A DNA stretch of 64,000 nt from an uncultured bacterium (GCA_949297765.1 CASFTV010000005.1:66144-130143), one strand, 5' to 3'; shown: positions 15,960 to 47,657, counted from the first letter of the stretch. Notes: generated from the sequence alone by a model not told the origin. Made by a program: numbers and translations.

Positions 15960-15965
15960 TTCTCC

Positions 15966-16703: not shown

Positions 16704-16707
16704 ATTC

Positions 16708-16764: not shown

Positions 16765-16821
16765 AAACGCACCGGAATCGGACCGGCCGGCGGAAATCCG
16801 TCCGCGGAAAAGGAGTCTGCC

Positions 16822-27893: not shown

Positions 27894-30716
27894 TCAGCGC
27901 ACCAGCGTAATCATTCCGAATTCCCGGGGAGGCGCCTGCTTGAGCTGGAAGATGCCCAGAGCGGAAACATCCGACTGTTTCGCCTCGTCCCGGTCATTGA
28001 CCATTCCGGCCCAGTAGACAATGTGGCCTTCGCGCACCGTCTCCAGATTCAGGAACCGCCACGGAACGGCGATCTGATAACGGATCACGGATTTCCCGTC
28101 CGGACGGCGTTCCACGGAAATCTTCCGCGGCAGCTCCGACGCGGGGACATCCTCCACGGGGAAGCGGTCGGCATCGAAGGAAAAGGTCCGGTTCGCCTCA
28201 GGGCCCTTCGATGTCAGGGCAAAGTTGATTTCACTGAAGGCGAGTTCACAGCGGTCTCCGAATTCATTGGCGGTCGGCGGAGTCGTGCGTTTTCTGGCGA
28301 ATCCGAACTGAAGAGAGTCTCCCGCCCAGATTTTCCATCCGCGGAACGGCTGGAGGACGACATCGTCGATCACCTCCACATCGAAGAGGAGAAACCGCTC
28401 GTTCCATCCGAAGGCGATTGCCGCACGCAGATCCTCCGGACCCGAGTGGAAATGCGGCGAACGGACCGGAACCGGATCAACCGCATAACGAACCGGATTC
28501 CGCCATTTGCTGAAATCTCCGCCTTCTCCGACGCCCGGAAGATACACCGCGGGGAGGAAATTCATCGACGCCCGCGTTTCAAAGGAATATCCGGTGTCGA
28601 GAAGTACTTTGAGTTCCGGATTCACAACCCGGAACGGATTCACATCGAGTCCCTCGAAGCGTGCGCGCAGTCTCTGAGTCTCTCCGGCTGGGAGAGTGAA
28701 GGGAATGCGTTTCCGCGCCTCGGGCGCACCTTCGATCCGCGTTTCCAGCCATCCGCCGATACCTCCGCCGGTCCGGTTCGAAAGTACAACGCTCAGCCCC
28801 GGAACGCCGTTTTCAAACATCGGGCAGACCTCCTGAACGCGGACCGGCGCCATTGCCTCCAGCAGAACTCCTGCGGCTGCGACAAGCCGTCCGCGGTCAA
28901 GAAGTTTCAACGTCATGGGATAGCTGCCGTTTTTCAGGTCCCGCGGAACCGGAACCGCAAACGAAAACCTGCCGTTTTTCCGGACGGGGAGACGCATCGG
29001 ATTCCGTTTCATCGAACGGCTGAACACCAGCTGGAGTTCACCGTCGGCGAGGACCGTTCCGGAAACCGTCACGGTATTCCCGACAACGCCGTCCAGGGAG
29101 GCCCGGTCGGGACGGATCTTCTTCACCGCGTGTTTTCCCCAGAGTTCCGGTGCGGCGCCGATCACATAGACCGGCGATTCGGAAAGTTTCAGCCGGAGCA
29201 GGCCGTCAACGGTTCTGACCCGCCTCCGGTTGCCCATCATGTCGGCGGTCTCGATTTCCGCGCGGCCGACCGGGAGTTCAACTTCGGGGTTGTTTCCGCC
29301 GAAATCCCAGAGAGCGATCACACAATGATCCTCCCGATCGGCATAGCTGTATCCGAGCACGGTATCTCCGAGATACTCAATCGCTCCGGTCGGGCGGTGT
29401 CCCTCCAGAAGGAAGCTCGCGGCGGCAAGGGCGGCAAACGCGGGCCGAGGCGCGACCCGCTGCGGAGCCCAGACCCGGTCCGGCAGTGTCAGATTGTAGC
29501 AGAGTCCGTAATCGCCGGTCCCGGCGCCGTCATGATCGTATCCGTAAAACGGCTCGTTGGAGGCGAACCCTTCTCCGAGCATGATCAGAGATGCGCGGAC
29601 CTGCCCGTGCATCTGGATCAGCTCCTGCTCAACCGTGGAGACCGCCTTGTATCCGGACTCGTTCGCCCGGATCGGAATCTCTCTTCCCTTCGCATAACGG
29701 CGGACCAGTTCCCGGAGCCGGCGGACATTCTCCACCAGCCCGTTCTGCTCCACCGGATACTGAATGTACGGATGAATGCTCAGTTCATCGAGAAAATTGA
29801 GCAGTCCCTTTTCAAACAGGCGCTCCTGCCGCGCCAGACTCTCTCTTGAAATCGTGCTGAAACACGGGCCGAGCACCCGGGCGGAGGGATCGCCCGCGTG
29901 AAATCCTTCGAATGCGACCTTGTGGAGCTTCAGGATCTCTTCATCGGTATGCGTCAGATCCGGTTCCCACATCGGCTGATAGCGCAGGACGTCGTTGTCG
30001 CGTTTCTGTCCTTTTCCGTGGACGGCGAGCTTCCGGTAGAATTCGCGGAACATCGCTTCTCCGTCGGAGTCCGTGAAGACCTTCCCGTTTGTATGGCGTT
30101 TCAGGAACTCCCTGTCCGGGAAATTGTACTGGAACGGCGTGGCGAGGGTCGCGCACTGATACAGAGTCCAGCTGCGTTTCCTGTATTCGCTGTTGATCCG
30201 TGCGGCGTCCTTGTCGTCCATGACGACCCGTCCGCCCGTCCAGCGTGCGCCGAACCAGGGGATCATCCCGGCCGACTGTCCGTGAAGGCCGAAAAACGTC
30301 TCGGAAGGCGGATACACCTTCCGCTTCTGCGGATCGGGAAGAACCGCATAGGGGATGCTCCCCGCCGGACGGCTTCCGGTTTTCGGCGTCGTCACTCCGT
30401 TCGAAAGCCGGACCCGCGCACGATAAAAACCGAGCGTTTCATTCGGTGCGGGAACGCTGCCTTTCCATGTTCCGCGGCGATCGCCTTTCACGGGAACGGA
30501 AACACGGCGGATCGTCCGATCGTTCTGATCGACGACGTTCACATCCAGCGTGAGCGCCTCCTCCGCCTTGAGTCCCGAGACCTCGAACTCCAGCGAGACC
30601 GGATCGCCCGCCTTGAACATGCTGTTCTGCGGACGGTTCGTTTCCCCCGTCATCCGGACTTCGGCAGCACAGGAGAGCGCAGAACAGAGAAAGATCAGCA
30701 ATACGTTCCTCCGCAT
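27894..30716 (-). CDS. Secreted 940-aa glycoside-hydrolase-like protein (clan GH-A-type TIM barrel, Ig-like domains, CBM9-like C-terminus)
   Basis: Signal peptide MRRNVLLIFLCSALSCAAE. Candidate acid/base IRANESGY. The C-terminal AFGWNERFLLFDVEVIDD…WAGDSLQFGF resembles family-9 CBM/DOMON-like modules. Confidence 0.7.
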   Translation of the reverse strand: MRRNVLLIFLCSALSCAAEVRMTGETNRPQNSMFKAGDPVSLEFEVSGLKAEEALTLDVNVVDQNDRTIRRVSVPVKGDRRGTWKGSVPAPNETLGFYRARVRLSNGVTTPKTGSRPAGSIPYAVLPDPQKRKVYPPSETFFGLHGQSAGMIPWFGARWTGGRVVMDDKDAARINSEYRKRSWTLYQCATLATPFQYNFPDREFLKRHTNGKVFTDSDGEAMFREFYRKLAVHGKGQKRDNDVLRYQPMWEPDLTHTDEEILKLHKVAFEGFHAGDPSARVLGPCFSTISRESLARQERLFEKGLLNFLDELSIHPYIQYPVEQNGLVENVRRLRELVRRYAKGREIPIRANESGYKAVSTVEQELIQMHGQVRASLIMLGEGFASNEPFYGYDHDGAGTGDYGLCYNLTLPDRVWAPQRVAPRPAFAALAAASFLLEGHRPTGAIEYLGDTVLGYSYADREDHCVIALWDFGGNNPEVELPVGRAEIETADMMGNRRRVRTVDGLLRLKLSESPVYVIGAAPELWGKHAVKKIRPDRASLDGVVGNTVTVSGTVLADGELQLVFSRSMKRNPMRLPVRKNGRFSFAVPVPRDLKNGSYPMTLKLLDRGRLVAAAGVLLEAMAPVRVQEVCPMFENGVPGLSVVLSNRTGGGIGGWLETRIEGAPEARKRIPFTLPAGETQRLRARFEGLDVNPFRVVNPELKVLLDTGYSFETRASMNFLPAVYLPGVGEGGDFSKWRNPVRYAVDPVPVRSPHFHSGPEDLRAAIAFGWNERFLLFDVEVIDDVVLQPFRGWKIWAGDSLQFGFARKRTTPPTANEFGDRCELAFSEINFALTSKGPEANRTFSFDADRFPVEDVPASELPRKISVERRPDGKSVIRYQIAVPWRFLNLETVREGHIVYWAGMVNDRDEAKQSDVSALGIFQLKQAPPREFGMITLVR

Positions 30717-30719
30717 GGG

Positions 30720-32294
30720 TCATTTCTCCCCGACCAGCTTGAATTTCCGCAGAGCCGCCTTTGCATGATCCGCACCGAGAAGCCATTTCCCATCGACCGC
30801 AAGAGTCTGTAGACGGTACGGAGCACGGGAGACGATCCCGCCTTTTTTCGTCAGGAGAAGGAGTTCCGGCCCCGCCACGGCGATGAACTCTCCGATCACG
30901 GCGACATCCCGGACCGGCATCTCCTTTTTCCAGACGGTTTTTCCGTTGTTCAGGAGCGCGATCCACCCTTCTCCCGCGGCAACAATCTCTTCCGGCGAGA
31001 AGGCATCGACTCTGCGAACCGGGAGCGTCAGATCATTTGCAACATTCAGCGTTCCGTTGTCGACAATCAGAAGAGTTCCTCCGACGCAGGCCAGATCGGA
31101 CGGCTTTTTGAAGGAGCGTTTCAGATCGACCATGCGGCTCCTGTCGCCCCACCGGGTCTTCGAAGGATCGAACCGCCAGAGTTTTCCGAGTTTTGCATCG
31201 AGGATCAGGAATGCCGTCCCGTCCGAAACCGCCGCGACGCCGTCGGACACCCAGTTCCCGCCCACATGCCACGGCTCGTTCCCCGTGCTGCCGAACGGAG
31301 AATCCGGGAAATCATCCAGATTCAGACCCAGAATCTTCCAGCCGGACACCGCAATGATTTTTCCGTTGAGGACGGCGAGTGCGGCCGGAGTCCCGATTCC
31401 ACCGATCCGGAAATCACATTTCTTCAGATTGCCCGGCGCATAATGCTTCAGCCCCTGCGACGTTGCAAGATAATATCCGCTGCCGCCGTCGCCGGCGAGA
31501 GCGCGGGCGTAGTTGTCCATCCCGTCTCCGAGCGAAACGACCTTCCCTTCGGAGAGCGAGTCCTCATACCGGACCGCGCGGTCGCCGCATCCCCAGACCT
31601 GCCCGTTCACAAACGAAAAATGATTCATCCAGCCGCCCGCCGGCCAGATTCCGCCGCCGACCGTCCGCCCGTCTGTGTCAAAGCGGTAAACCCGGCTGTC
31701 CGGATACATCGTGGAAACCAGCAGATATCCGCTTCCCGGCATGAAACCGGCGGAGACCACCTTCCCGGTTGTCCGGAAACCGCTCAGATCCAGCACAACC
31801 CCGAGCGCCTCCCCTTTCGCATTCCATCCGTAGACCTTCTTTTCCGTCCCGTCGAGAGCGAAGTATTTGAGTTTCTCGCCGAACCCCTTTTTTGTCGCGG
31901 CATGAGCCACTCCGGTGCAGGTGAATCCTTTCCGGAAATCAAGAGCCTGTCTGGTATTCACACGGCCGTCCGGACCGGTCAGAAGACGCAGGAGCACCGT
32001 ATTGCGCTGAAGGAAGATCTCCTCTCCATCCGTCATCAGACGTCCGGCACTCTGCAGGACCCGCTTCGCCGTCCGCTCGCCTCCGGCGATCCGGTAGACG
32101 CCGTTTCCGTTGACAAACCAGACATTTCCCTGCGGATCATTCACCGCGCTTCCGCAGAACGGTTCCCGCAAAACCTCCGCGCCCTCCGGCTGACTCTGTC
32201 CGAGAATCCCGAACTCTTTCAGTTCCGCGGCAGACAGCAGCGCCGTCGCCGCAAGACACAATGCAATACTGCTCATTGCAGATTTCAATTTCAT
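30720..32294 (-). CDS. Secreted beta-propeller-like protein, function unknown
   Basis: 524 aa. Signal peptide SIALCLAATALLSAAE. Repetitive G/W/D-rich blades and no catalytic motif recognised. AGGAG precedes the ATG. Ends 3 nt before the GH-like gene. Confidence 0.7.
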   Translation of the reverse strand: MKLKSAMSSIALCLAATALLSAAELKEFGILGQSQPEGAEVLREPFCGSAVNDPQGNVWFVNGNGVYRIAGGERTAKRVLQSAGRLMTDGEEIFLQRNTVLLRLLTGPDGRVNTRQALDFRKGFTCTGVAHAATKKGFGEKLKYFALDGTEKKVYGWNAKGEALGVVLDLSGFRTTGKVVSAGFMPGSGYLLVSTMYPDSRVYRFDTDGRTVGGGIWPAGGWMNHFSFVNGQVWGCGDRAVRYEDSLSEGKVVSLGDGMDNYARALAGDGGSGYYLATSQGLKHYAPGNLKKCDFRIGGIGTPAALAVLNGKIIAVSGWKILGLNLDDFPDSPFGSTGNEPWHVGGNWVSDGVAAVSDGTAFLILDAKLGKLWRFDPSKTRWGDRSRMVDLKRSFKKPSDLACVGGTLLIVDNGTLNVANDLTLPVRRVDAFSPEEIVAAGEGWIALLNNGKTVWKKEMPVRDVAVIGEFIAVAGPELLLLTKKGGIVSRAPYRLQTLAVDGKWLLGADHAKAALRKFKLVGEK

Positions 32295-32351
32295 TTTCTT
32301 CTCCTGAATATAAAAGGGTTGTTCTGTCCATATGTTTCATCGGTCGTTCCG

Positions 32352-33095
32352 TCAGGGTGCCCGGTATCCTCTCCGGAGCAGTCCGAATGTGGCTTCCGCC
32401 GGCGCCGTGAAATGAGCGTTCCGCAGCAGCGTTGCAACATGTCCGTCAAAATAGGCCTGATTGATTTTCCCCGAGACATATCTCCCGACGGTGTCCTTCT
32501 GACCATTTCCATGACGGCTTCCCAGGTGGAACCAGTCGTACACAAGATACGGATAGCCGTATCCATATCCGTACTCCAGCAGCGTGATTGCCTGCGATGG
32601 AGAGAGAATGGAGGAAATCGGACGAACGCCCCGTAAAGCATAAAGCCAGTATCCCGCACTGACCGCGTTCAAACCGTAGCTTTTCTCGCCGTAGCCTGCG
32701 GCAACGGGGCATTTCAGAGCCTGCGTCGGAGATTTTCCTTTTCCGCCGAGGAGCTCCATGATCTCGTATTCCCATGTGTTGTAATTTCCGTCGACTTCAT
32801 GGCGGATTGTCGGCCGTTCCGGCATGCAGAAACCGGTCCGGTCCGCATAGAAGGTGTACGCCACGCTCATCTGTTTGAGATTGCCCATGCAGAGAATCGT
32901 CCGCGCGGTTTCCCGCGCGCCCTTCAGGGCGGGCAGAAGAAGAGCGATCAGAATCACAAGGATTGAGATTACGATTAGCAATTCTAATAGAGTAAATGAG
33001 TTTCTTCTGTTTCCGGAATGACCGGCCCGGAGAAGCCCCTCCGCGGCACGGCGTACGGATACACTCGGACGGCCTGGATGACGAACAGCATTCAT
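32352..33095 (-). CDS. Prepilin-type N-terminal methylation-domain protein (pseudopilin-like, H-X9-DG family, atypical)
   Basis: Start ATG 33095 in an ATGA overlap with the lacI-family stop. There is no in-frame ATG/GTG/TTG closer to the pilin segment. …GNRRNS|[30 protein letters not shown]-terminal AYFDGHV. Confidence 0.8.
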   Translation of the reverse strand: MNAVRHPGRPSVSVRRAAEGLLRAGHSGNRRNSFTLLELLIVISILVILIALLLPALKGARETARTILCMGNLKQMSVAYTFYADRTGFCMPERPTIRHEVDGNYNTWEYEIMELLGGKGKSPTQALKCPVAAGYGEKSYGLNAVSAGYWLYALRGVRPISSILSPSQAITLLEYGYGYGYPYLVYDWFHLGSRHGNGQKDTVGRYVSGKINQAYFDGHVATLLRNAHFTAPAEATFGLLRRGYRAP

Positions 33096-34123
33096 TCTGT
33101 TTTTCCCTTCTGTTTGACAGTGGACCCCTTGACAAGGATTTCCGGCTTGATCCGGATTTCTGCGGAGGGGATTTCCTCCTTTTTTCCGCGTTCCAGACGG
33201 AGGAAGAGACGCTCGACGACCTTTGCGGCAATCTCTGCGGTCTTCTGATTGACGGAAGTCACAGGAAAGACATTCGCATAATCCGGTTCCATGCATCCGA
33301 ATCCCATGACGGCGATCTCTTCGGGAATGCGGATCTTCTCTTCGAAAAGGATCCGGCAGATCCGGATTGCCTGCCAGTCGTAGAACGTTGCGATGGCGTC
33401 TGTTTCCGGATGTTCGCGGAGAAAATCGAGAATCAGTTCCCGTCTGAAATCGAAAAAACCGGTTTCCGCGATGATCTTCACGGAGAATTCGGGGTGTTCC
33501 CGGCAGAACGCCTCGATCCCTTCCCGGCGGAGACGGGCAGGACTGGCGAAGCCGGGTCCCGCGAGATATCCCAGATGCCGCCGTCCGGTTTCATAGAGAT
33601 GGGCGGCGGAAAGATAGCCTCCGTAAAAATCGTCCGTCCCGACAAAATCAATATCGGCTCTGGTTTTCCGGTCGACGGAGATCACCGGAATGCAGCGCGA
33701 AACCAGACCGCTGAAATACGCATTGTCCGCGAAATCGTCGCGCGGGACAATGATGATCCCGTCCACGCGCTGCTCCACAAGACGGCGGATCAGAGCGGAA
33801 TCCTGATTGGTCTCGTTGAAGGCCGCGCAGGAAATCAGCATGCAGTCCCGGTCGTAGAGAAGACGCTGTATTTCGGATTCAATTTCCTGAAAAAACGGAT
33901 TTCCGTGATCGTAGATGATTCCGATCAGCCCCGAGCGGCCGGTCTGAAATCCGCTGATCAGACGGTTTTCGTGATAACCGAGTTTCTCCGCCGCTTCATG
34001 AATCCGCTTCCGCGTCCCCTCGGCAATCTCTCCCTTGTTCCTCATGACCCGGGATACTGTGCTCAGCGAATATCCCGTCGCCTTCGCGATATCCTTCAGG
34101 CTCGCCAGCTCTTCCGCACTCAT
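33092..34123 (-). CDS. LacI-family transcriptional regulator
   Basis: HTH LKDIAKATGYSLSTVSRVMRN plus a periplasmic-binding-protein-like sugar domain. 343 aa. Confidence 0.9.
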   Translation of the reverse strand: MSAEELASLKDIAKATGYSLSTVSRVMRNKGEIAEGTRKRIHEAAEKLGYHENRLISGFQTGRSGLIGIIYDHGNPFFQEIESEIQRLLYDRDCMLISCAAFNETNQDSALIRRLVEQRVDGIIIVPRDDFADNAYFSGLVSRCIPVISVDRKTRADIDFVGTDDFYGGYLSAAHLYETGRRHLGYLAGPGFASPARLRREGIEAFCREHPEFSVKIIAETGFFDFRRELILDFLREHPETDAIATFYDWQAIRICRILFEEKIRIPEEIAVMGFGCMEPDYANVFPVTSVNQKTAEIAAKVVERLFLRLERGKKEEIPSAEIRIKPEILVKGSTVKQKGKTE

Positions 34124-34147
34124 TTTTCCCTTATCCTTTCCATTTGT

Positions 34148-34216
34148 GTTCCGCAGGTCCGCCGCAAGTATTCCCGCAAGCGCTACCGCAACTACTACCG
34201 CAACTACTTGCGGAAC
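34148..34216 (-). promoter_or_regulatory. Periodic TTGCGG array in the leader/operator region of the LacI operon
   Basis: Minus strand reads GTTCCGCAAGTAG-TTGCGGTAGTAG-TTGCGGTAGCGC-TTGCGGGAATAC-TTGCGGCGGACC-TGCGGAAC. There are four TTGCGG at exact 12-nt spacing (plus-strand CCGCAA at 34162, 34174, 34186, 34198). One inverted copy forms the CCGCAA-gtag-TTGCGG hairpin. The outer 8-nt inverted repeat is GTTCCGCA/TGCGGAAC. Confidence 0.6.
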
Positions 34217-34224
34217 GTGTTTTA

Positions 34225-34253
34225 ATTATATCACAAAAGCGGGAAAATGTCAA
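34225..34253 (-). promoter_or_regulatory. Consensus sigma70-type promoter of the LacI/pilin-like/GH operon
   Basis: Minus strand reads TTGACA (34248-34253), a 17-nt spacer, then TGA-TATAAT (34225-34230). Both hexamers are perfect and there is an extended -10 TG. Confidence 0.7.
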
Positions 34254-34388: not shown

Positions 34389-35276
34389 TCAGTCGGAAAG
34401 GCCACAGTCCCGGTATTCGCCCGGGGTTTTTCCGGTGAATTTTTTGAACATCCGGAAAAAGAGCGTCGCATTCTCGTAGCCGCACTGTTCCGCGATCTCC
34501 TTGACGGAGAGGCTGGTACGCCAGAGCAGCTGCTTTGCACGGGAGATCCGGCGAAGCGAAAGATACTGTTTCGGAGGCAGACCGAATGTCTGGCGGAAAA
34601 GAGCGGAAAACGCGGAACGGGAAAGAGGGGTCATGGACCGGAGCGTTTCCGCGTCGATCCGTCCGGAGAGATGACGGTCGATATACTCCAGGACTTCGCT
34701 GAAACATCCCTTTGCGGCGACCTCGGGCGGCGTGTTCTGCAACACATGTTCGAGGAAGGGGGCAAGCAGCAGGAAGACCCGGTTGCGGATTTCCAGATCG
34801 TCCGAAAGAGTCCGGATTCCGGAAATCCCCCGGACAACGGAACGGAACGATGACAGAAGAGCGGCATTCTCAACGGGCAGACGGATCGGCTGTTTCATTG
34901 CCGGGAGCGTGCGGAGCTGACGGGAAATGAAATGGATCCACCAGTGGTTCGACGGCGTCACAGACTCATAGGAAAAAGGCGTTCCGGCGGGCAGGAGAAA
35001 GATGAATCCCGGCTCCACCGTGCAGTGCGTCTCCGCAAACAGCAGACGGAATTTTCCCTTCACCGGAAAATAAAGACGGAAAAAGTTGTCCCCTCCGAAC
35101 GACGGATGATACCGCCAGACACGGATTCCCTCACCGAATCCGGCACCGACGATCTCCAGATCCATCCCTCCGAGAAAGGTATGCCACGGGAGACGATTCT
35201 TCACTCTCCGCTCCTCCGATTCCGTTTTCTTCTGCAGAAAAGACAAAAAGTGTACCACTTTCTGCAAGAACTTCAT
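34389..35276 (-). CDS. AraC-family transcriptional regulator (cupin-like sensor + HTH)
   Basis: C-terminal SVKEIAEQCGYENATLFFRMFKKFTGKTPGEYR. Divergent from the GH29 operon. Confidence 0.88.
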   Translation of the reverse strand: MKFLQKVVHFLSFLQKKTESEERRVKNRLPWHTFLGGMDLEIVGAGFGEGIRVWRYHPSFGGDNFFRLYFPVKGKFRLLFAETHCTVEPGFIFLLPAGTPFSYESVTPSNHWWIHFISRQLRTLPAMKQPIRLPVENAALLSSFRSVVRGISGIRTLSDDLEIRNRVFLLLAPFLEHVLQNTPPEVAAKGCFSEVLEYIDRHLSGRIDAETLRSMTPLSRSAFSALFRQTFGLPPKQYLSLRRISRAKQLLWRTSLSVKEIAEQCGYENATLFFRMFKKFTGKTPGEYRDCGLSD

Positions 35277-35304
35277 TTACTTTTTCCGCAAGGCATGATA
35301 TAAT
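35276..35304 (+). promoter_or_regulatory. Promoter of GH29 / mutarotase-like / GH36 operon
   Basis: TTTACT (35276-35281), a 17-nt spacer, then TGA-TATAAT (35299-35304). It shares TTTTCC(C)GC…TGATATAATTA with the LacI-operon promoter. Confidence 0.55.
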
Positions 35305-35342
35305 TATAGCAGAAAACCAAACTTTTACAAGGAAAAAATCCC

Positions 35343-37085
35343 ATGACGACAACCGCAATCCGCTCTTTCTGCGACCGCAAATTCGGCATGTTCATTCACT
35401 GGGGCCTCTACGCCCTCCCCGGAGGACGGCACAACGGCCGGATCATGGAACCCATCGGCGAATGGTTCCAGTCCTATTTCCGGATGCCGAACGAAGAATA
35501 CGCGAAATTCGCGGCGAAATTCAATCCGGTCAAGTTCAACGCGGATGAATGGATCCGGAAAGCCGCCGAGGCGGGCATCCGCTACATCATCTTCACGACC
35601 AAGCACCACGACGGATTCTGCATGTACGACACAAAGGTGTCCGACTACAACATCGTAAAGATGACGCCGTTCGGACGCGATCCGCTCCGGGAACTCCAGC
35701 ATGCGTGCGCCCGGTACGGGGTCAAACTGGGCGTCTACTACTCCCACCATCTCGACTGGCATGAGAAGGACGGGGGCGATCCCGATCCCTCGCGCGGACT
35801 CAACTGCAACTCGATGCACTGGGGCAACGACTGGGATTTCCCGAACCGCGCGGAAAAAAACTTTGCCAATTACTTCCACGGCAAAGTCATCCCGCAGGTC
35901 ACCGAACTGCTTACAAACTACGGCGAAATCTGCGAACTCTGGTGCGACTGCCCGATGGACATCAAGCCCGAATTCAGCCGGGAACTCCGTGCGCTTGTCA
36001 AAAAACTCCAGCCGGACTGCATGATCAACAGCCGGATCGGAAACGACTGTCACGACTTTGTCGGACTTGGCGACAACCAGCTTCTCTGCAACCGTCTCCA
36101 ATATCCGGTGGAGTCCCCCGGCACCCTCAACAACACCTGGGGATTCAAATATGACGATCACAACTGGAAATCCACCGAACAGATCATCACACAGCTGATC
36201 TCCCTGACCGAAAAGAACGCCAACTACCTCATGAACGTCGGCCCCACACCGGAAGGCGACTTCACCCCGGAAACCGACCGGATTCTCGCCGGCATCGCCG
36301 ACTGGATCCGCGACAAGAAACAGGCGATCCACGCCTCCGATCCGAATCCGTTCCCCCTTGAACTCGATTTTGCCTACTGCACCCGGAAAGGAAACACCCT
36401 GAACCTTTTCCTGAAAAAGACTCCTGAAACACTTACGCTGAACGGCATCCGGACCCGTCTTCTTTCCGCGGGAGGAGCGACGTTCTCCCAGAAAGGCGAA
36501 ACGATCACGATCCGCCTTCCGGATTTCCATGGAGCATTCCTGCCGCTTCTCACGCTGGAATTCGATCAGGAACCGCAGATCCGTCAGGACTTCATTCCGC
36601 AGAACGGCGCAATGGTTCTGGGGATGAGCGCCGGAACCATCCGCGAGGGGAATACCGACGGAGCGGAAGGAGAAGAGGTCATCGACGAAGCCGCGGTCGC
36701 GCACAAACTCTCCAGCCATGTCCATCTCGACCGGGACGGAACTGTCTGCGACTGGAACAACACCGTCGACGCCATCGTCTGGAACGTCGAATTCCCGGAA
36801 AAAGGTTCCTATGACGTCTTCCTCGCGACCCAGACCCGATGGGCGCAGCAGCCCTGGGACGGAAAACGCGAAATGGAAGTCGAATGGAATGGACAGCGCA
36901 TCGTCTCCACATTGAACAGGGATCAGGATTTCTCCACTTCGCACCGCAGGAAATACGAATCCCGCCTCGGCGTTCTGAATGTGGAAGCGGGAGAACGCGG
37001 AATGCTGATCCTGAGGACGCTCCGGATCGGCTCGAAGGAAGCGGGAGCTCTGAATCTGGCCTCCCTCCGTCTGGTGCGGAAATAG
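35343..37085 (+). CDS. Alpha-L-fucosidase (GH29) with C-terminal beta-sandwich
   Basis: FGMFIHWGLYALPG, TTKHHDGFCMYDT, YYSHHLDW. No signal peptide is evident. Confidence 0.88.
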   Translation: MTTTAIRSFCDRKFGMFIHWGLYALPGGRHNGRIMEPIGEWFQSYFRMPNEEYAKFAAKFNPVKFNADEWIRKAAEAGIRYIIFTTKHHDGFCMYDTKVSDYNIVKMTPFGRDPLRELQHACARYGVKLGVYYSHHLDWHEKDGGDPDPSRGLNCNSMHWGNDWDFPNRAEKNFANYFHGKVIPQVTELLTNYGEICELWCDCPMDIKPEFSRELRALVKKLQPDCMINSRIGNDCHDFVGLGDNQLLCNRLQYPVESPGTLNNTWGFKYDDHNWKSTEQIITQLISLTEKNANYLMNVGPTPEGDFTPETDRILAGIADWIRDKKQAIHASDPNPFPLELDFAYCTRKGNTLNLFLKKTPETLTLNGIRTRLLSAGGATFSQKGETITIRLPDFHGAFLPLLTLEFDQEPQIRQDFIPQNGAMVLGMSAGTIREGNTDGAEGEEVIDEAAVAHKLSSHVHLDRDGTVCDWNNTVDAIVWNVEFPEKGSYDVFLATQTRWAQQPWDGKREMEVEWNGQRIVSTLNRDQDFSTSHRRKYESRLGVLNVEAGERGMLILRTLRIGSKEAGALNLASLRLVRK

Positions 37086-37183
37086 AACGTGCATGGAGCG
37101 GAACGCGGAGGGGAAAACGCCCTCTCCGGAACCGGAACAGCGGCGGATATCCGCGAAAAAAAGGAATAAATCGAATTTCCGAT

Positions 37184-37212
37184 TTGACTATTTCTCCCGT
37201 CCGGGTTAAACT
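37184..37212 (+). promoter_or_regulatory. Candidate internal promoter before 37248
   Basis: TTGACT (37184-37189), a 17-nt spacer, then TAAACT (37207-37212). Confidence 0.35.
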
Positions 37213-37247
37213 ACCGGAAAGAGCAACACCAAACGGGAGAATCGGAT

Positions 37248-38405
37248 ATGTCGGAATTTGTTCAGAAAACGTCGTCGCACAATGCCGGCGGCTGGCTTGT
37301 CAACGCACCCGGAATCGAGTATTTTGTCACGGAGGAGGGCGGGCAGATTGCGCCGGTCGTCTTCCGCCTCCCCGACGGGAGAACGGCGGAACCCTATCAT
37401 CTCACGCCGTGGCAGGACGAGGAAAAAAGCAGTCTCTCCGGCGCTCTGAAAAATCTGCGCGGGGAGATTTTCTGCATGCCGTTCGGAGGAAACGCCGATC
37501 CGGTTGACGGAGAAAAGCATCCCGCCCACGGCGAGTGTTCCGGCGGAAAATGGGAACTGCTCTCCGCGGAGGAGAACGGGATGTCCGCAACGGTACGCTT
37601 CCGTTTTCATTCGCATGTCCGGGAATCCGAGCTGGTCAAGGAGGTCGTGGTGAACCGGGGGGAAAGCGTCCTCTATTTCAAGCATACGATTTCCGGTTCG
37701 CATGGGACCATGCCGCTCGGGCACCATCCGATCATCAAAATGCCGGAGAAGGGAGAAACGATGTTTCTGTCCGTCGGGGAGTTTGAATACGGCTCCACCT
37801 GTCCGGGGGTGTTTTCCGATCCGGAAAAGGAGGCGTATCAGATTCTTGCGCGCGGAGCGGAATTCAAGACCATCGAAAAGGTCCCGGCGCTGCCGCGGGA
37901 TATTGAGAGCATTGACTATTCGGTGTTTCCCTCGCCGTATGGATTCTGCGATCTGTTTTCCGTGTTCAAGAAACCGTCGGAGAAACCGGCGTGGGTTGCG
38001 GCGGTGTATCCCGGAAGGGGGTATCTCTGGTTTGCGCTGAAGGATGCGGCCGTTCTGCCGTCCACGACGCTCTGGATCTCCAATTCCGGCCGTTTTTTTG
38101 CGCCCTGGAGCGGACGGACGCGCTGCATCGGCGTGGAGGATACCTGCTCCTATTTCGCGGACGGGCTCAAACACTCCGTGGAGCACAACAAGCTCAACGA
38201 TCTCGGGTTCCCGACCGCAATTGGGCTGAATCCGGAAAAGCCGACGGAAATCCGTCACATTCAAGGAGTTGCAGCGGTCCCGGGAGATTTCGGGAAGATT
38301 GCCGGAGCGGAATTCGGCGAACGGTCGGTCACATTCCGCGACGTTCACGGGAAAACCGTCACAGCCGCCGTTGACCACGCATTTGTCATGAAAGGATCCA
38401 AATGA
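37248..38405 (+). CDS. Hypothetical protein, possibly galactose-mutarotase-like (aldose-1-epimerase superfamily)
   Basis: 385 aa. HPAHGECSGGKWELL and PLGHHPIIKMP are reminiscent of epimerase His blocks; the function call is weak. ATGA overlap with the next gene. Confidence 0.6.
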   Translation: MSEFVQKTSSHNAGGWLVNAPGIEYFVTEEGGQIAPVVFRLPDGRTAEPYHLTPWQDEEKSSLSGALKNLRGEIFCMPFGGNADPVDGEKHPAHGECSGGKWELLSAEENGMSATVRFRFHSHVRESELVKEVVVNRGESVLYFKHTISGSHGTMPLGHHPIIKMPEKGETMFLSVGEFEYGSTCPGVFSDPEKEAYQILARGAEFKTIEKVPALPRDIESIDYSVFPSPYGFCDLFSVFKKPSEKPAWVAAVYPGRGYLWFALKDAAVLPSTTLWISNSGRFFAPWSGRTRCIGVEDTCSYFADGLKHSVEHNKLNDLGFPTAIGLNPEKPTEIRHIQGVAAVPGDFGKIAGAEFGERSVTFRDVHGKTVTAAVDHAFVMKGSK

Positions 38406-40348: not shown

Positions 40349-40372
40349 CCGCACGGCCGCGCAGAGCCGGTC

Positions 40373-40834: not shown

Positions 40835-40876
40835 TGCCGTCACCTCTCTTTCCTTTTCCCGGATACTGTACGCGCG

Positions 40877-40908
40877 GACCGGAAAAAATCAAGTGTTTTT
40901 TTCCGGTC
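40877..40908. repeat. Perfect 12-bp inverted repeat spanning the stop codon of the GH42-like gene
   Basis: GACCGGAAAAAA-tcaagtgt-TTTTTTCCGGTC, located between the GH gene and the lipoprotein gene. Confidence 0.6.
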
Positions 40909-42763
40909 CGGTTTCCGTCAGATGAAGAAGAATGGTCTCGGGCCCGGAAAACACATATTCGAGCCGGTCGGGCGCCGTTCTCTCCGGGACGGCGGAACCC
41001 AGCAGCATCCGCACGTCCGCGGGACGGCGCAGACGGATGGTATGCCGTCCGCTCTCCGCGGTATGGATCATCAGCAGGTCGCGCGACGCCCAGACGGGGC
41101 AGAGAAGATCGGTGTAAAAATGAACCCCCGCCTTTTCCGCCAGAGTCCGGAGAAGAGACTCCGGCAGGCTCCGGGAATCCGGGACAAAGACGCTGTTCCA
41201 GCCCTCCATCTTCCGTTCCGTGAAAGAGGCGCATGTTTCGGGGAATCCGGTAAGTGTCCGCATCCGGGAGGGTGTCCTGCGCCGTCCGTCGGAAACCGCC
41301 GCGCCGTAGAGCCAGACCACCGTGCGGCCCGCAGTCAGAATCCGCTCCCGGAGAATGCGTTCCTTTTCCTCCGTGACTTCGAACAGCCCCGGAAAAAGAA
41401 TCAGACGGAACGGCGAAAGATCGGGAATCCGCGGAAGATCGCGGAAGGAATAGACCCGGTACGGTGCGCCGCAGCGGTTGCAGGAGCGGAGCAGAGAAGG
41501 AATCATCCCGTCCGCAATGCTGTCCGGCGCTTCATCGTCGATGAGCAGGGCGCTGTCCGGATCGACGATCACCGCGATTTCCGCATCCGGTTCACGGCGG
41601 GTGTCTGCGAAGCGGTCGCTGATCCGTTGGAATCTGCCGATCTCCCCTGTCAGGGTTTCCGAGTCGTAATATCCGCCCCACATGTCGAACCACCAGAGCG
41701 ACGCTCCGTGGAACAGCGAACGGCAGAATTCCCGGCGGAGTCCCGCGACATCCGCCGTTTCGTCGGGCCATTGCTTCATCCACTTGAGCCGGACATGGCT
41801 GCTGAGCTGATAATTTGCCGTGCTGGTTCCATGGTCGATCTCATGAAAAGCGTTTTTCCCGTGGAGATGCAGAGTCCCGTTCGGAGCCATGAATCCGGCG
41901 CCGCCCCCCATTTCACGGTCGTAATAGCAGCCGGGACTGATGAGAAAATCGACTCCGGACAGCGCGCAGACCTTCTCATACGCGAGATGCCCGCACTGCA
42001 CCAGCCGTTCCCGTCCCAGCTGGAGGATGTATCCGTAGAAGACCCCGAGCGCCGTCTGTTCCGGAATCATCTCCCTTGCCGCCTCCGTAAAGGAAGCGAT
42101 TCCCTCCGCAACGCATTCACTGATGAATTTCCAGTAGCGCAGGGCCGCGGCGTCCTTTTCCGGATCGCGCAGGAACAGCGGAGGATCGGAACGGAAACGG
42201 CGGGCAAGGTCGGGAATGGAAACGGGATCGTCCCATCCGTGTTCCACGCTCCACTGCCGGTAGGCGGACCGTTTTCCGGCAAGTTCGCAGCCTTTGGAAT
42301 AATCCATCCACTCATCGGTCATTCCGCAGGCGAGAATGTAAGCGCGGATCCGGTTCGGCCAGGCGGATTCCAGATGCGAAAGCAGCGCGCGGAGATATTT
42401 TTCCGTCTCCTCCCTCCAGCGGGCGGTGGTAAGGGCGTTGGTGAGTCCGAGAGTGCTGTCGGCGGAGGTCCGCATCAGCTGACGCACCAGCCAGTTCGGA
42501 GAATTGAGATCTATCATGCACAGGAGCTCCGCTTCCGGCGCAACGGAGAGCAGATCGGCGATCTGCCGGTCCGCATGTTCAAATTCATACGCATCAAAGA
42601 ACACCCAGTTCGGAGGATACTCCACATAGGGCTGGCCGAGGGAGTTGGTTGTATTCGCAGGAAATACGCAGAACTGCCGGATTCCGGCTTCATAAAAGCG
42701 CCGGACGGTTTGCAGTTCCCGGCGGAATGAACGGTACGCGAAAAAAGGCTTCGACGGCATCAT
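40889..42763 (-). CDS. Putative cytoplasmic glycoside hydrolase with GH42-like architecture (TIM barrel + GATase-like trimerisation-type domain)
   Basis: 624 aa with no signal peptide. The C-terminal part (IAVIVDPDS…YRVYSFRDL…FRLILFPGLFEVTEEK…GRTVVWLYG) resembles the beta-galactosidase trimerisation domain. Family assignment is uncertain. Confidence 0.6.
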   Translation of the reverse strand: MMPSKPFFAYRSFRRELQTVRRFYEAGIRQFCVFPANTTNSLGQPYVEYPPNWVFFDAYEFEHADRQIADLLSVAPEAELLCMIDLNSPNWLVRQLMRTSADSTLGLTNALTTARWREETEKYLRALLSHLESAWPNRIRAYILACGMTDEWMDYSKGCELAGKRSAYRQWSVEHGWDDPVSIPDLARRFRSDPPLFLRDPEKDAAALRYWKFISECVAEGIASFTEAAREMIPEQTALGVFYGYILQLGRERLVQCGHLAYEKVCALSGVDFLISPGCYYDREMGGGAGFMAPNGTLHLHGKNAFHEIDHGTSTANYQLSSHVRLKWMKQWPDETADVAGLRREFCRSLFHGASLWWFDMWGGYYDSETLTGEIGRFQRISDRFADTRREPDAEIAVIVDPDSALLIDDEAPDSIADGMIPSLLRSCNRCGAPYRVYSFRDLPRIPDLSPFRLILFPGLFEVTEEKERILRERILTAGRTVVWLYGAAVSDGRRRTPSRMRTLTGFPETCASFTERKMEGWNSVFVPDSRSLPESLLRTLAEKAGVHFYTDLLCPVWASRDLLMIHTAESGRHTIRLRRPADVRMLLGSAVPERTAPDRLEYVFSGPETILLHLTETGPEKNT

Positions 42764-43719: not shown

Positions 43720-44628
43720 TCAGAGTTCCTTCCGGACCATATATTCCCGGGGGGAGATGCCGAACATCTTTTTGAACGTCGTGGAGAAATTGAGCGCATT
43801 GGGATAACCGACCTCGGCGGCAATCTGCTTGATCGACCGCTGCTCCGGCAGAAGAAGAAGCGAAACGGCGGCCCGCATCCGGAGACGGAGCAGATACTGA
43901 TAGGGAGTCTCTCCGAAATACTGACGGCAGAGACGGATGAAATGACTCTCGGAAAGAGAGCAGGCATCCGCCATCTCCTTCACGGTCAGGGGTTCGGCAA
44001 GCCGGGTCCGGCAGAACTCGTCGAAATGGATCAGCTGCCGGGGGATGTCCGGTTTCGGTTCGGGATGGCGCAGAAAATTCAGGAAACGCCAGGTCAGGAA
44101 ACTGTTGTTCCGTTCCGTCTCCTGTCCGCCGGATGCGGCCAGAGCTTCGAAATCGCGGATAAGCGAAAGGAAACGTCCCGAGTCGATTCCGGAGAGGACG
44201 TCGATCCGGGAGAGAGCGCTCTCCTTCAGATACGCGCCGAGCAGAGGACCGTTGATGACAAGTGAAAGTTTTTCGCAAGGCTGGTCCACCGCATAGAAAT
44301 CCCCGGTCAGACCGGGCTGAAAAAGAAAAAGCTCGCCCTTCTCCAGTTCGTATCCCCGGTCCTCCTGCCGGAACTGAAGGACGCCGGAACAGATGTACTC
44401 CACCGAGAGATATCCCGCATGACAGCGCCGGAAATGGGCCCCCGGAAGAAGAGCCACTCTCTGAATCGCCGCCGTATGAAGAAGCTCCCGGTCCGGAGCG
44501 CCCATGTTGAGTCCGGAAAGATGAAACGATCGCCGCACGCGCCGATAATAGAGAACCTCTTCTCCGGAAGAGAAGATTTTCGGAATCCGATCGGCATCGA
44601 AATGGGCGCAGCTCTCCAGTCGTCTCAT
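43720..44628 (-). CDS. AraC-family transcriptional regulator
   Basis: 302 aa. C-terminal [32 protein letters not shown]. Confidence 0.88.
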
Positions 44629-44789: not shown

Positions 44790-45539
44790 ATGGGAGAAAA
44801 AAAGGGATTTACACTTCTGGAGCTTCTCATCGTCATTGCAATCATTGCGGTCCTTGCGGCGATGCTGCTTCCTGCGCTGAACAAGGCGAGAAGCGCGGCG
44901 CAGAAAATTTCCTGCGTCAACAATCTGAAACAGCTGGGAACGGCGAACGCTCTGTATGCGGCGGACAATCAGGACATCTATGTCCTGCGGACCTACAAGA
45001 ACTCCTCTTCACGCCCGCCGTGGAGCCAGCTTCTGATGGAGGGAGAGTACCTTCCGACCACGCGGACGGTCAACGTGTGGTTCAAATTCAATCCTGCGCT
45101 GTTCTGTCCGGCGATCCCGAAAAATCCGCCCTATCCGTTCGGCGGCTCGGTCAATATCTACTACAACACCTATGCGATGATCGACTACCACACGGATGCC
45201 GATTTCAACGAGAAAAAAGAGGAACTGGGCGATTTTACGGAATACAAATGGCTGGAAAACTACTATTACCGGATCGGCAAGGCGAAACAGCCGTCCCGCA
45301 CGCCGCTGACCGCGGATTCAAGCTACACCCGCTCGGAAACAAACTTCGGCCTGAGCTACTGCATGGTGCGTCCCGACTATGTGGACAACCGCGGACTCTA
45401 TCTCCGGCACTCGAACATGCTGAACAGCGGCTATTTTGACGGACACGTCCAAACTTCCCGTCCGGATGCCCTGCGCGCCGGTCCGGCGAAGCTCCGCGCT
45501 TTTATTTCCGAGTTCGGAACCACAATGATCTTCGAATAA
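44790..45539 (+). CDS. Prepilin-type N-terminal methylation-domain protein, H-X9-DG family (pseudopilin-like)
   Basis: Start ATG 44790 after AGAGAGGGG. MGEKKG|[28 protein letters not shown] is a class III signal with G-1, F+1 and E+5. C-terminal [12 protein letters not shown] is an exact H-X9-DG. Confidence 0.85.
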
Positions 45540-45566: not shown

Positions 45567-47657
45567 ATGGCATCGGCGGCGCAGATCTGTTTTCTTTTCA
45601 GCGCGCTTCTCTTCGCGGGAGCCGGAGCGGCGGAGAAGGTCCGCTGGAAGGCGGAACAGGGGGACGAATGGATCCCTCTTGAATTCAAACGGGAGACCGT
45701 GAAGGGAAGCATTCTGGATTTTTCCTTCCTGCGGGACGCTCCGGCGGGGAAATACGGATTTGTCCGCGTCTCGCCGCAGGGGACCTTCTCGTTTGAAAAG
45801 GCGCCGGAAAAGCGCATCCGGTTTTTCGGAGTCAATCTCTGTTTCACCGCGAATTTTCTGGAAAAGGAGGAGGTGGACAAACTGGCGGAAACTCTCCTGC
45901 GCGGCGGATACAACGCCGTCCGGATTCACCATCACGACACGGAAATGCTGAAAAACGATGCGCCCGACTCCCTCACGCTGGACCCGGAAAAACTCGACCG
46001 GCTGGATTATCTGGTCTTCCGCATGAAGGAGGCGGGAATCTACATCACAACGGATTTCTACACAAACCGGATGTTCCGACCCGGCGACAGGATCGAAGAG
46101 GCGCCCGGAGGCGGAGGACTCATGAAATTTCTGCTTCCCGTCAGCGAATCCGCTTTCCGGAACTGGAAGGAATTTGTCCGCCGCTGGATGACGCACCGGA
46201 ATCCGTACACCGGCAGGACATGGGCGGAGGAGGAAGCGCTTTTCTGCGTGAATCTGGTAAACGAGGACCCGGTCATCAACCGTCTTCCCGCTCAGGGGCC
46301 GGTCGCGGAACTCTACCGGAAACGGTTTGCCGCGTGGAAGGAAAAAAATGGCTGCCCGGATGCCGAACCGGTCCGGACCGACCGGAATTTCCGCCGCTTC
46401 CTTCAGGATCTCCAGGAGAAACGCTATCTTCAGATGAGGACCTTTCTCCGGGAGGAACTCGGAATGAAGACTCTGATTACAAGTCTGAATCTCTCCGCGG
46501 ACATTCCGCTGGCGCTGACCCGATCGAGAGTGTTTGATCTGGTCGACATCCACGGCTATCACGATCATCCGTATTCCGTGGAGAGGAAATGGCATCTTCC
46601 CTACCGCTTCACCCAGAAATCCGCGATTTCAGGATTTGCGTCGGTTCCTCGCTGGATGCTCGGCGCGCGAATCTTCGGAATGCCGATGATCGTCACGGAA
46701 TTCAACTACTGCAGTCCGAACCGTTACCGGGCGGAATCCGGACCGCTGATCGGAGGATACGCGGCGCTGCAGGACTGGGACGGACTCTTCCGATTCGCCT
46801 GGGCTCACGGCAGCCGGACGATCCGGACAATCTCCGGAGGCGTCTACGGATTCGACGCGGTCAACGACCCCCTTGCACAGCTCTCCGACAAAATCGCGAT
46901 TCTGCTGTTCCGGCGCGGCGACGTCTCCCCGGCGAAACGCCGCATCGCCTGGAATGTCTCCTCCGATTTCTTCCGCGGTCACGGAATGATCTTCTTCCCG
47001 AAAACCTTCGGGCAGCTCGGACTGTTTGCGCAGGTCGGAAGTATTCTCAACGGAGCGCTTCCGGAAGCGGCGGAACTCATCACCGGCGCCTCCGCCAGCA
47101 AACCGCAGAACATGAAGGATCCCGCAACCCGCCGCTTCTGGAAAATGCTCAGCGAAACCGGAATCGCGGAAAGCGACGGCGGGGAACTCCGGCTGAATGC
47201 GCGGAACCGGCAGCTTGCGGTCTGCACGCCGCGGGCCGAATCCCTGACACTGGACGGCGGCTCGCTTTCCGGGAAACGTCTCCGCGTCCGCCGCGCGGAG
47301 GGAATTCAAACTCTGGCGCTGTTCTCCATGGACGGGAACCCTCTTGAGAAGAGCACCCGTCTTCTGCTGATCCACCTGACAGATGTTCTCGGCTCCGGAG
47401 CCCTTTTCGATTCACCGAAGCGGGAGATTCTCTACTGGGGCGGCGGACTGCCTCTGCTCGTAAGACGCCGCAAAGCCGAACTCGAACTGCAAACCTCCCA
47501 TCCGTTCCGGATCTCCGCGCTGAGTGCGGACGGCGAATTCCGAGGCGTTGTCCCGACAGTTTTCAACGGCGGCATTCTGCGCTTCACCGCCGATCCGGGC
47601 CGGTTTCCCGGCGGCGTAACGGCTTATGAACTGCGACGGGAATCCGAGCCGCGCTGA
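45567..47657 (+). CDS. Secreted glycoside hydrolase, GH5-like (clan GH-A)
   Basis: Signal peptide ICFLFSALLFAGAGAAE. NAVRIHHHD, NLVNEDP (acid/base) and MIVTEFNY (nucleophile). AAGGAG precedes the ATG. Confidence 0.75.
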   Translation: MASAAQICFLFSALLFAGAGAAEKVRWKAEQGDEWIPLEFKRETVKGSILDFSFLRDAPAGKYGFVRVSPQGTFSFEKAPEKRIRFFGVNLCFTANFLEKEEVDKLAETLLRGGYNAVRIHHHDTEMLKNDAPDSLTLDPEKLDRLDYLVFRMKEAGIYITTDFYTNRMFRPGDRIEEAPGGGGLMKFLLPVSESAFRNWKEFVRRWMTHRNPYTGRTWAEEEALFCVNLVNEDPVINRLPAQGPVAELYRKRFAAWKEKNGCPDAEPVRTDRNFRRFLQDLQEKRYLQMRTFLREELGMKTLITSLNLSADIPLALTRSRVFDLVDIHGYHDHPYSVERKWHLPYRFTQKSAISGFASVPRWMLGARIFGMPMIVTEFNYCSPNRYRAESGPLIGGYAALQDWDGLFRFAWAHGSRTIRTISGGVYGFDAVNDPLAQLSDKIAILLFRRGDVSPAKRRIAWNVSSDFFRGHGMIFFPKTFGQLGLFAQVGSILNGALPEAAELITGASASKPQNMKDPATRRFWKMLSETGIAESDGGELRLNARNRQLAVCTPRAESLTLDGGSLSGKRLRVRRAEGIQTLALFSMDGNPLEKSTRLLLIHLTDVLGSGALFDSPKREILYWGGGLPLLVRRRKAELELQTSHPFRISALSADGEFRGVVPTVFNGGILRFTADPGRFPGGVTAYELRRESEPR

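Follow-up and report, generated by a model that had tools for sequence, protein, structure and literature searches.

A 64-kb stretch of DNA from an uncultured bacterium (GCA_949297765.1, CASFTV010000005.1:66144-130143; referred to as the window, with positions counted from its first nucleotide) carries a four-gene cassette in which a gene for a type IV pilin-like protein lies between the gene for a LacI-family sugar repressor and the genes for two exported proteins. All genes of this cassette are on the minus strand. The cassette and its leader comprise the following features, in the order of transcription.

34225..34253, minus strand: sigma-70-type promoter, TTGACA-17-(TG)TATAAT, 12/12 matches with TG extension
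34199..34212, no strand assigned: operator-like palindrome CGCAA-N4-TTGCG, directly 3' of the -10 box
34162..34209, no strand assigned: tandem half-site repeats with a 12-nt period (CCGCAA on the plus strand, TTGCGG on the minus strand) in the 5' leader
33092..34123, minus strand: LacI-family sugar repressor, 343 aa (LacI helix-turn-helix domain PF00356, 1.5e-15; Peripla_BP_1/3/4 domains, PF00532 and PF13377)
32352..33095, minus strand: pilin-like gene (copy 1), 247 aa, of the DUF1559/H-X9-DG family of Planctomycetota-Verrucomicrobiota-Chlamydiota (PVC) bacteria
30720..32294, minus strand: exported beta-propeller-like protein, 524 aa
27894..30716, minus strand: exported multidomain hydrolase, 940 aa

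The four tightly packed genes are predicted to be driven by one strong promoter with an operator-like palindrome. A reading made from the sequence alone (the sequence-only reading) had placed a perfect TTGACA-17 promoter at the head of a transcription unit, a LacI-family repressor behind it, and a pilin-like gene starting in an ATGA overlap with the repressor stop; all three claims held. The promoter (read from 34253 to 34225) is the only perfect site within 27-35.5 kb. The repressor has the N-terminal LacI helix-turn-helix and the periplasmic-binding-protein-like sugar domain of its family; RbsR, MalI and PurR are the nearest NCBIfam models, every score being under the equivalog cut-off. The ATG of the pilin-like gene does overlap the TGA of the LacI gene, and there is no other in-frame start ahead of its FTLLELL motif. 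A 57-nt gap containing an AGGAG ribosome-binding site separates this gene from the 524-aa open reading frame (ORF), and only 3 nt separate the 524-aa and 940-aa ORFs, whose products both have Sec-type signal peptides as judged by inspection and a crude test. A convergent histidine-kinase gene ends 30 nt past the final stop of the cassette, and the unit contains no excess of terminator-like hairpins over shuffled sequence.

The palindrome CGCAA-N4-TTGCG occurs once in the 64 kb, against 0.07 occurrences expected. In the orthologous locus L001 a TTGACA-17-TATAAT promoter at the equivalent position is likewise followed by a perfect palindrome, CGCAAGTACTTGCG. Moreover, the half-site TTGCGG is present in 3-5 copies with an exact 12-nt period in the leaders of both the window operon (34162-34212) and L001 (8818-8858), the spacing in family D1 being 12, 12 in the window and the same in L001. 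These half-sites resemble PurR-type boxes of the LacI family. The palindrome is likely to be a LacI binding site mediating autorepression, and the leader repeats could possibly serve cooperative repressor binding or form a leader structure; an Rfam search of the window, including the leader that bears them, matched no RNA family. The locus as a whole reads as a glycan-degradation operon of a Victivallales (Lentisphaerota) bacterium, putatively autorepressed by its LacI protein. The assignment to Victivallales rests on SerA of the window, which shares a cluster (90% identity or more) with a Victivallales protein.

The same four-gene layout is found elsewhere, which bears out the earlier view of the cassette as a coherent unit. 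In L001 and L002 a LacI gene is followed by a pilin-like gene (231 aa) and by genes for 524-aa and 942-aa proteins, the L001 products being ~60-66% identical to those of the window. In L095 the series is a GntR-PBP gene (a GntR-type DNA-binding domain with a periplasmic-binding-protein-like sugar domain), a pilin-like gene (222 aa), and genes for 519-aa and 955-aa proteins. Compared by their globular parts, the three pilin-like proteins (window, L001, L095) find one another as reciprocal best hits, at 60% and 35% identity, so an orthologous pilin-like gene has been kept even though the DNA-binding domain of the regulator changed from LacI to GntR type. By these comparisons the pilin-like gene is co-inherited with the enzymes. 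Of 8 contexts examined for the 940-aa family, 7 have a pilin-like gene alongside, and only a Kiritimatiellia locus does not; its distant members beside such a gene are in L093, L096 (Opitutaceae), L097 (a fusion protein) and L098.

Other exported enzymes are preceded by pilin-like genes in the same way. In L089 a pilin-like gene next to an AraC gene precedes a GH5 gene, and a second one precedes genes for a CBM9 protein and a CBM4_9 protein (GH, glycoside hydrolase; CBM, carbohydrate-binding module). In L091 a pilin-like gene next to a GntR gene precedes GH39 and BNR genes, and a GntR-headed series runs through a pilin-like gene, GH10, CBM4_9, a further pilin-like gene and CE4. Thus in L091 (GH10, CE4, GH39) and L089 (GH5, CBM9 protein) one pilin-like gene stands directly before each exported enzyme. 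L091, from a Lentisphaeria metagenome-assembled genome (GCA_003488745.1; 3639-11595 and 18469-20257), has four pilin-like genes in 20.7 kb. Three of the four are paralogs in one xylan-type cluster (GH39-like, GH10, CE4), and two of these three share the single GntR-headed operon, where they immediately precede two different exported enzymes.

Is this arrangement a general one? An all-phyla Pfam scan of downstream neighbors showed no dominance of carbohydrate-active enzymes (CAZymes), and the analysis was therefore made phylum by phylum. The statistics rest on our own crude ORF and motif calling in 23 Lentisphaerota loci, with other genes of the same loci as controls; regulators were detected with small hidden Markov models because an earlier single-query phmmer search under-detected the GntR type. 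A LacI/GntR-PBP or AraC regulator lies within 600 nt upstream of 17/38 pilin-like genes but of only 10/177 control genes (odds ratio 13.5, Fisher p 1.3e-8). In 30/34 cases the gene that follows has the same orientation. Its median length is 660 aa, against 311 aa for next same-strand genes among the controls (p 4e-7); it passes a crude signal-peptide test in 18/34 cases against 21/173 (p 6e-7), and it contains CBM9_1 in 5/30 against 2/109 (p 0.005). Pfam aggregates, which show the top families only, are led for the 30 downstream proteins by CBM9, GH42, GH10, GH5, GH39, GH67, DUF4838, CBM4_9, CBM32-like, CE4 and heparinase-II, and for the 109 control genes by regulators, oxidoreductases and housekeeping families. 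The family is therefore enriched beside CAZyme and regulator genes in Lentisphaerota, as the sequence-only reading had proposed to check, but not in the other two phyla sampled: a sugar regulator is upstream of 0/26 copies in Verrucomicrobiota and of 1/54 in Planctomycetota. DUF1559 as a whole does not have this link to regulators and CAZymes, which among the sampled loci is specific to Lentisphaerota. In some Verrucomicrobiota such genes are nevertheless part of CAZyme operons, as in the Opitutaceae locus L096 and a published Opitutales case (see below).

The Planctomycetota copies are longer, and the gene after them typically encodes a small, conserved lipoprotein (~140-190 aa) that combines a lipobox (..GCG) with a beta-sandwich of the CarboxypepD_reg-like type. 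Examples are L032:11206-11664, L038:11055-11516, L051:10931-11383, L064:11085-11504, L074:7219-7698 and L079:10923-11486. Compared among themselves, these lipoproteins are homologous (E 1e-5 to 1e-23 for many pairs), and together with the pilin-like gene they appear to make up a two-gene module unlike the Lentisphaerota layout.

The pilin-like protein of the cassette has a 33-aa basic leader, an S/FTLLELL motif (the slash marking the position of prepilin cleavage) with Glu at +5, conserved Cys69 and Cys129, and a degenerate C-terminal Y-X10-DGH. The sequence-only reading gave it a pilin or pseudopilin N-terminus and a C-terminal H-X9-DG region. The first of these stands in part: the N_methyl domain PF07963 scores 26.1 bits (cut-off 21.2), and in an alignment of 51 members Phe34 (+1) and Glu38 (+5) are invariant, but Ser takes the place of Gly at -1. 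The C-terminal claim fails for copy 1, which reads Y206-X10-D217G218 (or H195-X21-DG), and holds for a second pilin-like gene in the window (copy 2; see below), which has H207-X9-DG. The NCBIfam model TIGR04294 scored neither copy. PF07596 (DUF1559) gives copy 1 18.5 bits, under the cut-off of 23.3, and no match to copy 2. The orthologs P0004 and P0005 do bear precomputed PF07596, many of the 271 HMMER relatives of copy 1 carry it or are named 'prepilin-type processing-associated H-X9-DG protein', and C69, C129 and the C-terminal DGH are invariant or nearly so in the 51-member alignment. Homology thus places copy 1 in the DUF1559/H-X9-DG family, although it fails two formal signatures. The family shares with copy 1 the N-terminal motif, the Cys pair and the C-terminal DGH; what copy 1 lacks is the exact H-X9-DG spacing.

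An AlphaFold2 (AF2) model of copy 1 has a 51-residue N-terminal helix (36-86) and a small sheet, the head being of moderate confidence (predicted local distance difference test, pLDDT, 70). The family profile matches alpha1 of PilA4 (6e-14) and of GspG (5wda, 2.5e-9), over ~60 helix residues only. Copy 1 has Glu(+5) and a hydrophobic alpha1-N within a ~50-residue helix; this helix makes it a member of the type IV pilin superfamily, from which it departs in lacking Gly(-1). The alpha1-N segment, a helix of 25 residues, is nearly identical among paralogs that are otherwise ~25-30% identical.

The departure at -1 is lineage-wide, and was a side product of the analysis. Gly (rarely Ala or Ser) at this position is the key determinant for canonical prepilin peptidases. 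Copy 1 reads RRNS/FTLLELL, the -1 Ser being encoded at 32997-32999, whereas copy 2 has the canonical Gly (KKG/FTLLELL). In a sample covering the pilin-like genes of L001, L004-L083, L089-L096 and the window, Gly occurs in 1/28 Lentisphaerota copies, the rest having S (9), I, T, R, N and K (3 each), C, D and L; Gly or Ala occurs in 25/25 Verrucomicrobiota and 53/54 Planctomycetota copies (78/79 together). Separately annotated loci show the same pattern, with F+1 and E+5 remaining invariant. Either the peptidase has relaxed specificity or the proteins stay uncleaved. We lean toward cleavage by a divergent peptidase, because the near-identical F+1, E+5 and alpha1-N argue for packing against a common partner.

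The two exported proteins had no Pfam, NCBIfam or PDB sequence match even at lenient thresholds (E 5). For the 940-aa protein, the earlier suggestion of a clan GH-A-like hydrolase gained support from structure prediction. The AF2 model, built with a family alignment, has a pLDDT of 91.5; it begins with a signal peptide and an Ig-like domain and continues with an alpha/beta barrel (~140-440) and several beta-sandwich domains, and the protein ends in a CBM9-like tail. The top Foldseek match is the GH39 structure 5jvk (E 5e-17, TM 0.69 on the target, 14% identity), with GH2 enzymes next, all of clan GH-A. Glu251 (in WEPD) and Glu353 (in NESGY) are invariant in 34 sequences and located at strand ends, which is the placement that the acid/base and nucleophile of the clan require. 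The model thus has the (beta/alpha)8 barrel of clan GH-A, in which the catalytic Glu residues sit where strands 4 and 7 end. No existing GH family is matched at the sequence level in Pfam, NCBIfam or PDB. The protein, whose relatives make up a family of only 41 clusters (Lentisphaeria, Kiritimatiellia and Opitutaceae), may stand for a GH family not yet described, its fold being GH39-like. The CBM9-like tail is the less certain part of the earlier description: the CBM9 profile did not match the window tail alone, but it matches the homolog P0186 (CBM9_1, 2.5e-12, residues 780-958), residues 771-959 of which align with window residues ~752-939.

The 524-aa protein belongs to a small family whose genes adjoin those of the 940-aa family (for example WC708_17770/17775). 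Searched against 1.8 billion representatives, the family profile found 230 relatives, those at the weak end being WD40/PQQ propeller proteins with 4-9 repeated stretches (E 1e-14 to 1e-6), and one member of the family is named as a YvrE-type lactonase. The earlier label 'beta-propeller-like' is therefore supported indirectly, through the family profile, with no direct Pfam match. In P0186 (1516 aa) the two proteins are fused: residues 1-959, at 32% identity and E 2e-133, correspond to the 940-aa protein, and 971-1514 to the 524-aa family. In P0198, P0204 and P0225 (~1500 aa) the propeller family matches at ~970-1500, and their architecture is probably the same. Because the two form a single polypeptide in P0186, we predict that the 524-aa and 940-aa genes encode one functional enzyme unit.

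Other relatives have different domain partners. P0189, P0200 and P0216 are shorter proteins joining CBM9_1 to the propeller, and in P0148, a separate 1516-aa protein, the hydrolase family is linked to a GH20 domain. In L096 and L098, members of the 940-aa family are flanked by GH123 genes. The GH20 fusion and the GH123 neighbors hint at hexosamine-containing substrates; taken with the GH29 gene near the cassette (see below), they suggest glycans that are fucosylated or contain hexosamine. As a side product, then, the analysis yields a GH39-like fold that is a candidate for a new GH family, co-occurring with GH123 and GH20-fused relatives.

What might a pilin-like protein do in such an operon? 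We favor, at a probability of roughly 40%, the view that it is an enzyme-specific pseudopilin adaptor for secretion or tethering. Release of LacI by the cognate sugar would cause the enzymes and the pilin-like subunit to be made together. The near-invariant N-terminal helix (F+1, E+5, ~50 residues) would plug the subunit into a shared type IV filament machine, either a pseudopilus resembling the one in a type II secretion system (T2SS) or a short pilus, and the fast-evolving globular domain would pair with the enzyme encoded immediately downstream. The subunit would then either hand this enzyme to the secretin for export or hold it on a surface fiber. The machinery would be held in common and each CAZyme operon would have one private filament subunit, following the logic of the pul secreton. 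We prefer the adaptor because there is one pilin-like gene per enzyme (two in one L091 operon, and one per propeller-hydrolase unit here), and because the maltose-regulated pul secreton and the T2SS reading of an alginate operon (see below) also fit it. A role as sensor or anti-repressor was considered as well and rejected, since LacI, GntR-PBP and AraC proteins are one-component cytoplasmic sugar sensors.

A more tentative, though possible, extension is that the Lentisphaerota type IV filament is a modular glycan-utilization platform. Each operon would supply a subunit whose processing takes place at an unusual, Gly-less site, paired one-to-one with an enzyme or its glycan, so that the shared secretin and filament machine is reprogrammed by substrate. 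If so, the platform would be a functional counterpart of the SusC/D-type polysaccharide utilization loci (PULs) and a route for 'selfish' polysaccharide handling in PVC bacteria.

Several observations weigh against an adaptor working in a filament. Copy 1 and 27/28 Lentisphaerota copies lack Gly(-1), and if they are uncleaved their incorporation into a filament is unlikely. Foldseek with the copy 1 model aligned the helix alone and turned up nothing similar past alpha1. The GspG model TIGR01710 matches no more than the N-terminal 50 residues, at 26.5 bits for copy 1 and 31.9 bits for copy 2 (cut-off 88.85), and by this score copy 1 is not a GspG equivalog. No T2SS, type IV pilus or prepilin peptidase gene was found among the scanned genes of the window, the rest of the genome not being covered. 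The pairing of gene and enzyme also has exceptions: in L091 a LacI gene is followed by a pilin-like gene and DUF2157, with no exported enzyme adjoining, and in L093 the pilin-like gene is in mid-operon. The loci behind the enrichment figures were, moreover, ascertained through similarity to the copy 1 protein, with crude gene calling. While the operon rule is solid, we infer the mechanistic steps beyond co-regulation, and any interaction, secretion role or filament assembly of the pilin-like protein is putative.

One close known system is the pul secreton of Klebsiella oxytoca, in which pulA and pulC-O, including the pseudopilins PulG-K, are under MalT/maltose regulation. Like the cassette, it has a sugar-responsive regulator that co-expresses a secreted glycoside hydrolase and a pseudopilin with the same type of N-terminal helix. 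It differs in having a whole T2SS (~14 genes) in the locus for one enzyme, whereas the cassette has a single pilin-like gene per operon and there are many such operons per genome, the machinery, if there is any, lying elsewhere. The SusC/D PULs of Bacteroidota likewise combine a regulator and secreted CAZymes with a non-catalytic envelope protein for each substrate, and a genome has many of them, but the TonB-dependent transporter and SusD are absent from the cassette and its neighbors (no SusC- or SusD-like gene among those scanned at 27.9-47.7 kb), and the envelope component is of a different superfamily. The cassette therefore counts neither as a pul-type secreton nor as a SusC/D PUL.

Another close system is an operon of Verruconatronum alginivorum (Opitutales), where a pulG-like pseudopilin gene, one of a family with 67 paralogs, is inside an alginate-induced lyase operon and the authors propose T2SS export; another pseudopilin is among the alginate-over-expressed proteins outside the two induced clusters (PMC13274419). 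The pseudopilin is noted there in passing, in a different phylum, with no regulator-pilin-enzyme rule, orthology or -1 shift (PMC13274419). Our own search of the literature on H-X9-DG, DUF1559, and prepilins with CAZymes found no paper on such a rule, on orthology across cassettes or on the -1 shift. DUF1559/H-X9-DG has 74 copies in R. baltica and 68 in P. limnophila (PMC2754498, PMC10632474), and is referred to as a family of unknown function or as a 'solute-binding' family (PMC2754498, PMC10632474, PMC4807772). The Lentisphaerota copies differ from the PVC family at large in being shorter (median 245 aa against 327 aa), in lacking Gly/Ala(-1) and in being wired to sugar regulators and exported CAZymes.

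Instead of pairing with an enzyme, the variable head might be lectin-like and bind the target glycan of the operon, making a type IV filament a substitute for SusC/D in glycan capture or import; the glycan would be presented to the enzymes, or pulled by filament retraction through the secretin into the periplasm. The sequence-only reading favored such a role, and we regard it as the main rival of the adaptor, plausible but less probable. Sugar regulators and CAZymes are genuinely associated with the family, the paralogs of the one xylan-type cluster in L091 are mutually closest (42-56% identity), which fits specificity for a type of substrate, and an aromatic-rich loop, EYGYGYGYPYLVYDW, is retained in the ortholog group of copy 1. 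Cellulose binding by a pilin-family protein is known from Ruminococcus albus. In Streptococcus sanguinis the modular, lectin-type pilins PilB and PilC reportedly adhere to glycans through an extra or variable domain (PMC8179133, PMC9934059). Within the PVC group, the type IV-like pilus locus MUL2 of Akkermansiaceae (Amuc_1099-1102) is implicated in the acquisition of mucin and fucoidan (PMC13174399), and this is the nearest experimental support for glycan capture.

None of these precedents has the same design, however. Each genome has a single, conserved MUL2 locus, which includes PilM and an archaeal-type pilin, instead of substrate-specific paralogs in CAZyme operons, and the protein family is unrelated (PMC13174399); the S. 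sanguinis and R. albus pilins are encoded in pilus loci, not in hydrolase operons. Neither Pfam nor Foldseek recognized a CBM, lectin module or lectin fold in the pilin-like protein of the cassette. The CBM9-like and CBM4_9 modules on the enzymes would already bind glycan, and the caveats on Gly(-1) and on the machinery genes apply equally. A receptor for each glycan does not predict two pilin-like genes in one operon before different enzymes; the layout of one pilin per exported enzyme fits enzyme pairing at least as well as it fits capture. The likeness to SusC/D is best taken as an analogy. In Lentisphaerae isolates laminarin or starch induces 'secretion system' genes, which we count in favor of the adaptor, and abundant 0.4-8 um filaments that the authors read as filamentous phages (PMC11361711); that some of these filaments are pili would be pure speculation on our part.

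It is unlikely, in our estimate, that the pilin-like protein instead stays uncleaved, as a bitopic inner-membrane protein whose periplasmic head is a tethered binding protein or chaperone for exported proteins or oligosaccharide products. The scarcity of Gly(-1) in Lentisphaerota, set against Gly/Ala in nearly all copies of the other two phyla, speaks for this, long basic leaders suit the positive-inside rule, and the Pfam name SBP_bac_10 and older papers speak of a solute-binding family (PMC2754498). But a buried Glu(+5) and a near-identical 25-residue helix are not expected of a mere membrane anchor and suggest packing against a common partner or a filament core, and there are no transporter genes in the cassette. 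Finally, chance scattering of an abundant paralog family through CAZyme-dense genomes is very improbable: the family is indeed dense (~15 of ~99 genes in annotated loci) and the loci are CAZyme-rich throughout, but against this stand the odds ratio calculated from genes of the same loci, the stereotyped place after a regulator and before a large exported protein with short gaps or an ATGA overlap, and pilin-like orthology kept across cassettes down to 35% identity.

In guts, sediments and oceans, PVC bacteria (Lentisphaerota, Planctomycetota, Verrucomicrobiota, Kiritimatiellota) play a major part in breaking down complex and sulfated glycans. To our knowledge they have no SusC/D systems, and we know of no function assigned in twenty years to DUF1559/H-X9-DG, their largest paralog family. 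The operon rule in Lentisphaerota (sugar regulator, then pilin-like gene, then exported CAZyme) makes this orphan family testable, and the co-inheritance of the pilin-like gene with the enzymes yields concrete gene pairs for such tests.

The window has a second, independently regulated cassette, as had been claimed for 44790-47657, and the arrangement is conserved in other assemblies. It consists of three genes.

43720..44628, minus strand: AraC-family regulator, divergent from the other two genes (HTH_18, 1.5e-22; AraC_binding)
44790..45539, plus strand: second pilin-like gene (copy 2), 249 aa, with canonical G/FTLLELL and RH-X9-DGH
45567..47657, plus strand: 696-aa protein with a hydrophobic N-terminus, 27 nt downstream of the second pilin-like gene

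The 696-aa protein has no Pfam, NCBIfam or PDB match. An AraC-adjacent gene for a 697-aa protein in L001 was considered as a pilin-less ortholog of this cassette and ruled out, the proteins not being homologous.

Between the two cassettes, 34389-42763 is a glycan island encoding mostly orphan proteins. An AraC gene (35276..34389) is divergent from a GH29 alpha-L-fucosidase gene (35343-37085), and the island also encodes proteins of 385 aa and 648 aa, the latter with faint GH36/melibiase similarity, and a 624-aa protein (42763..40889) whose gene adjoins an IclR regulator. The 624-aa, 648-aa and 385-aa proteins had no significant match in Pfam, NCBIfam or PDB, lenient thresholds included. In L093 a 611-aa gene whose product is 35% identical to the 624-aa protein is followed in one operon by a pilin-like gene and a homolog of the 940-aa family. 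Elsewhere in the window, a 939-aa ORF (14088-16907, minus strand), in which residues 374-779 match the FAD-dependent oxidoreductase domain PF12831, shares part of its span with an IclR-type gene (15966-16703, plus strand); the ORF is probably over-extended at its 5' end, the real gene encoding ~600 aa.

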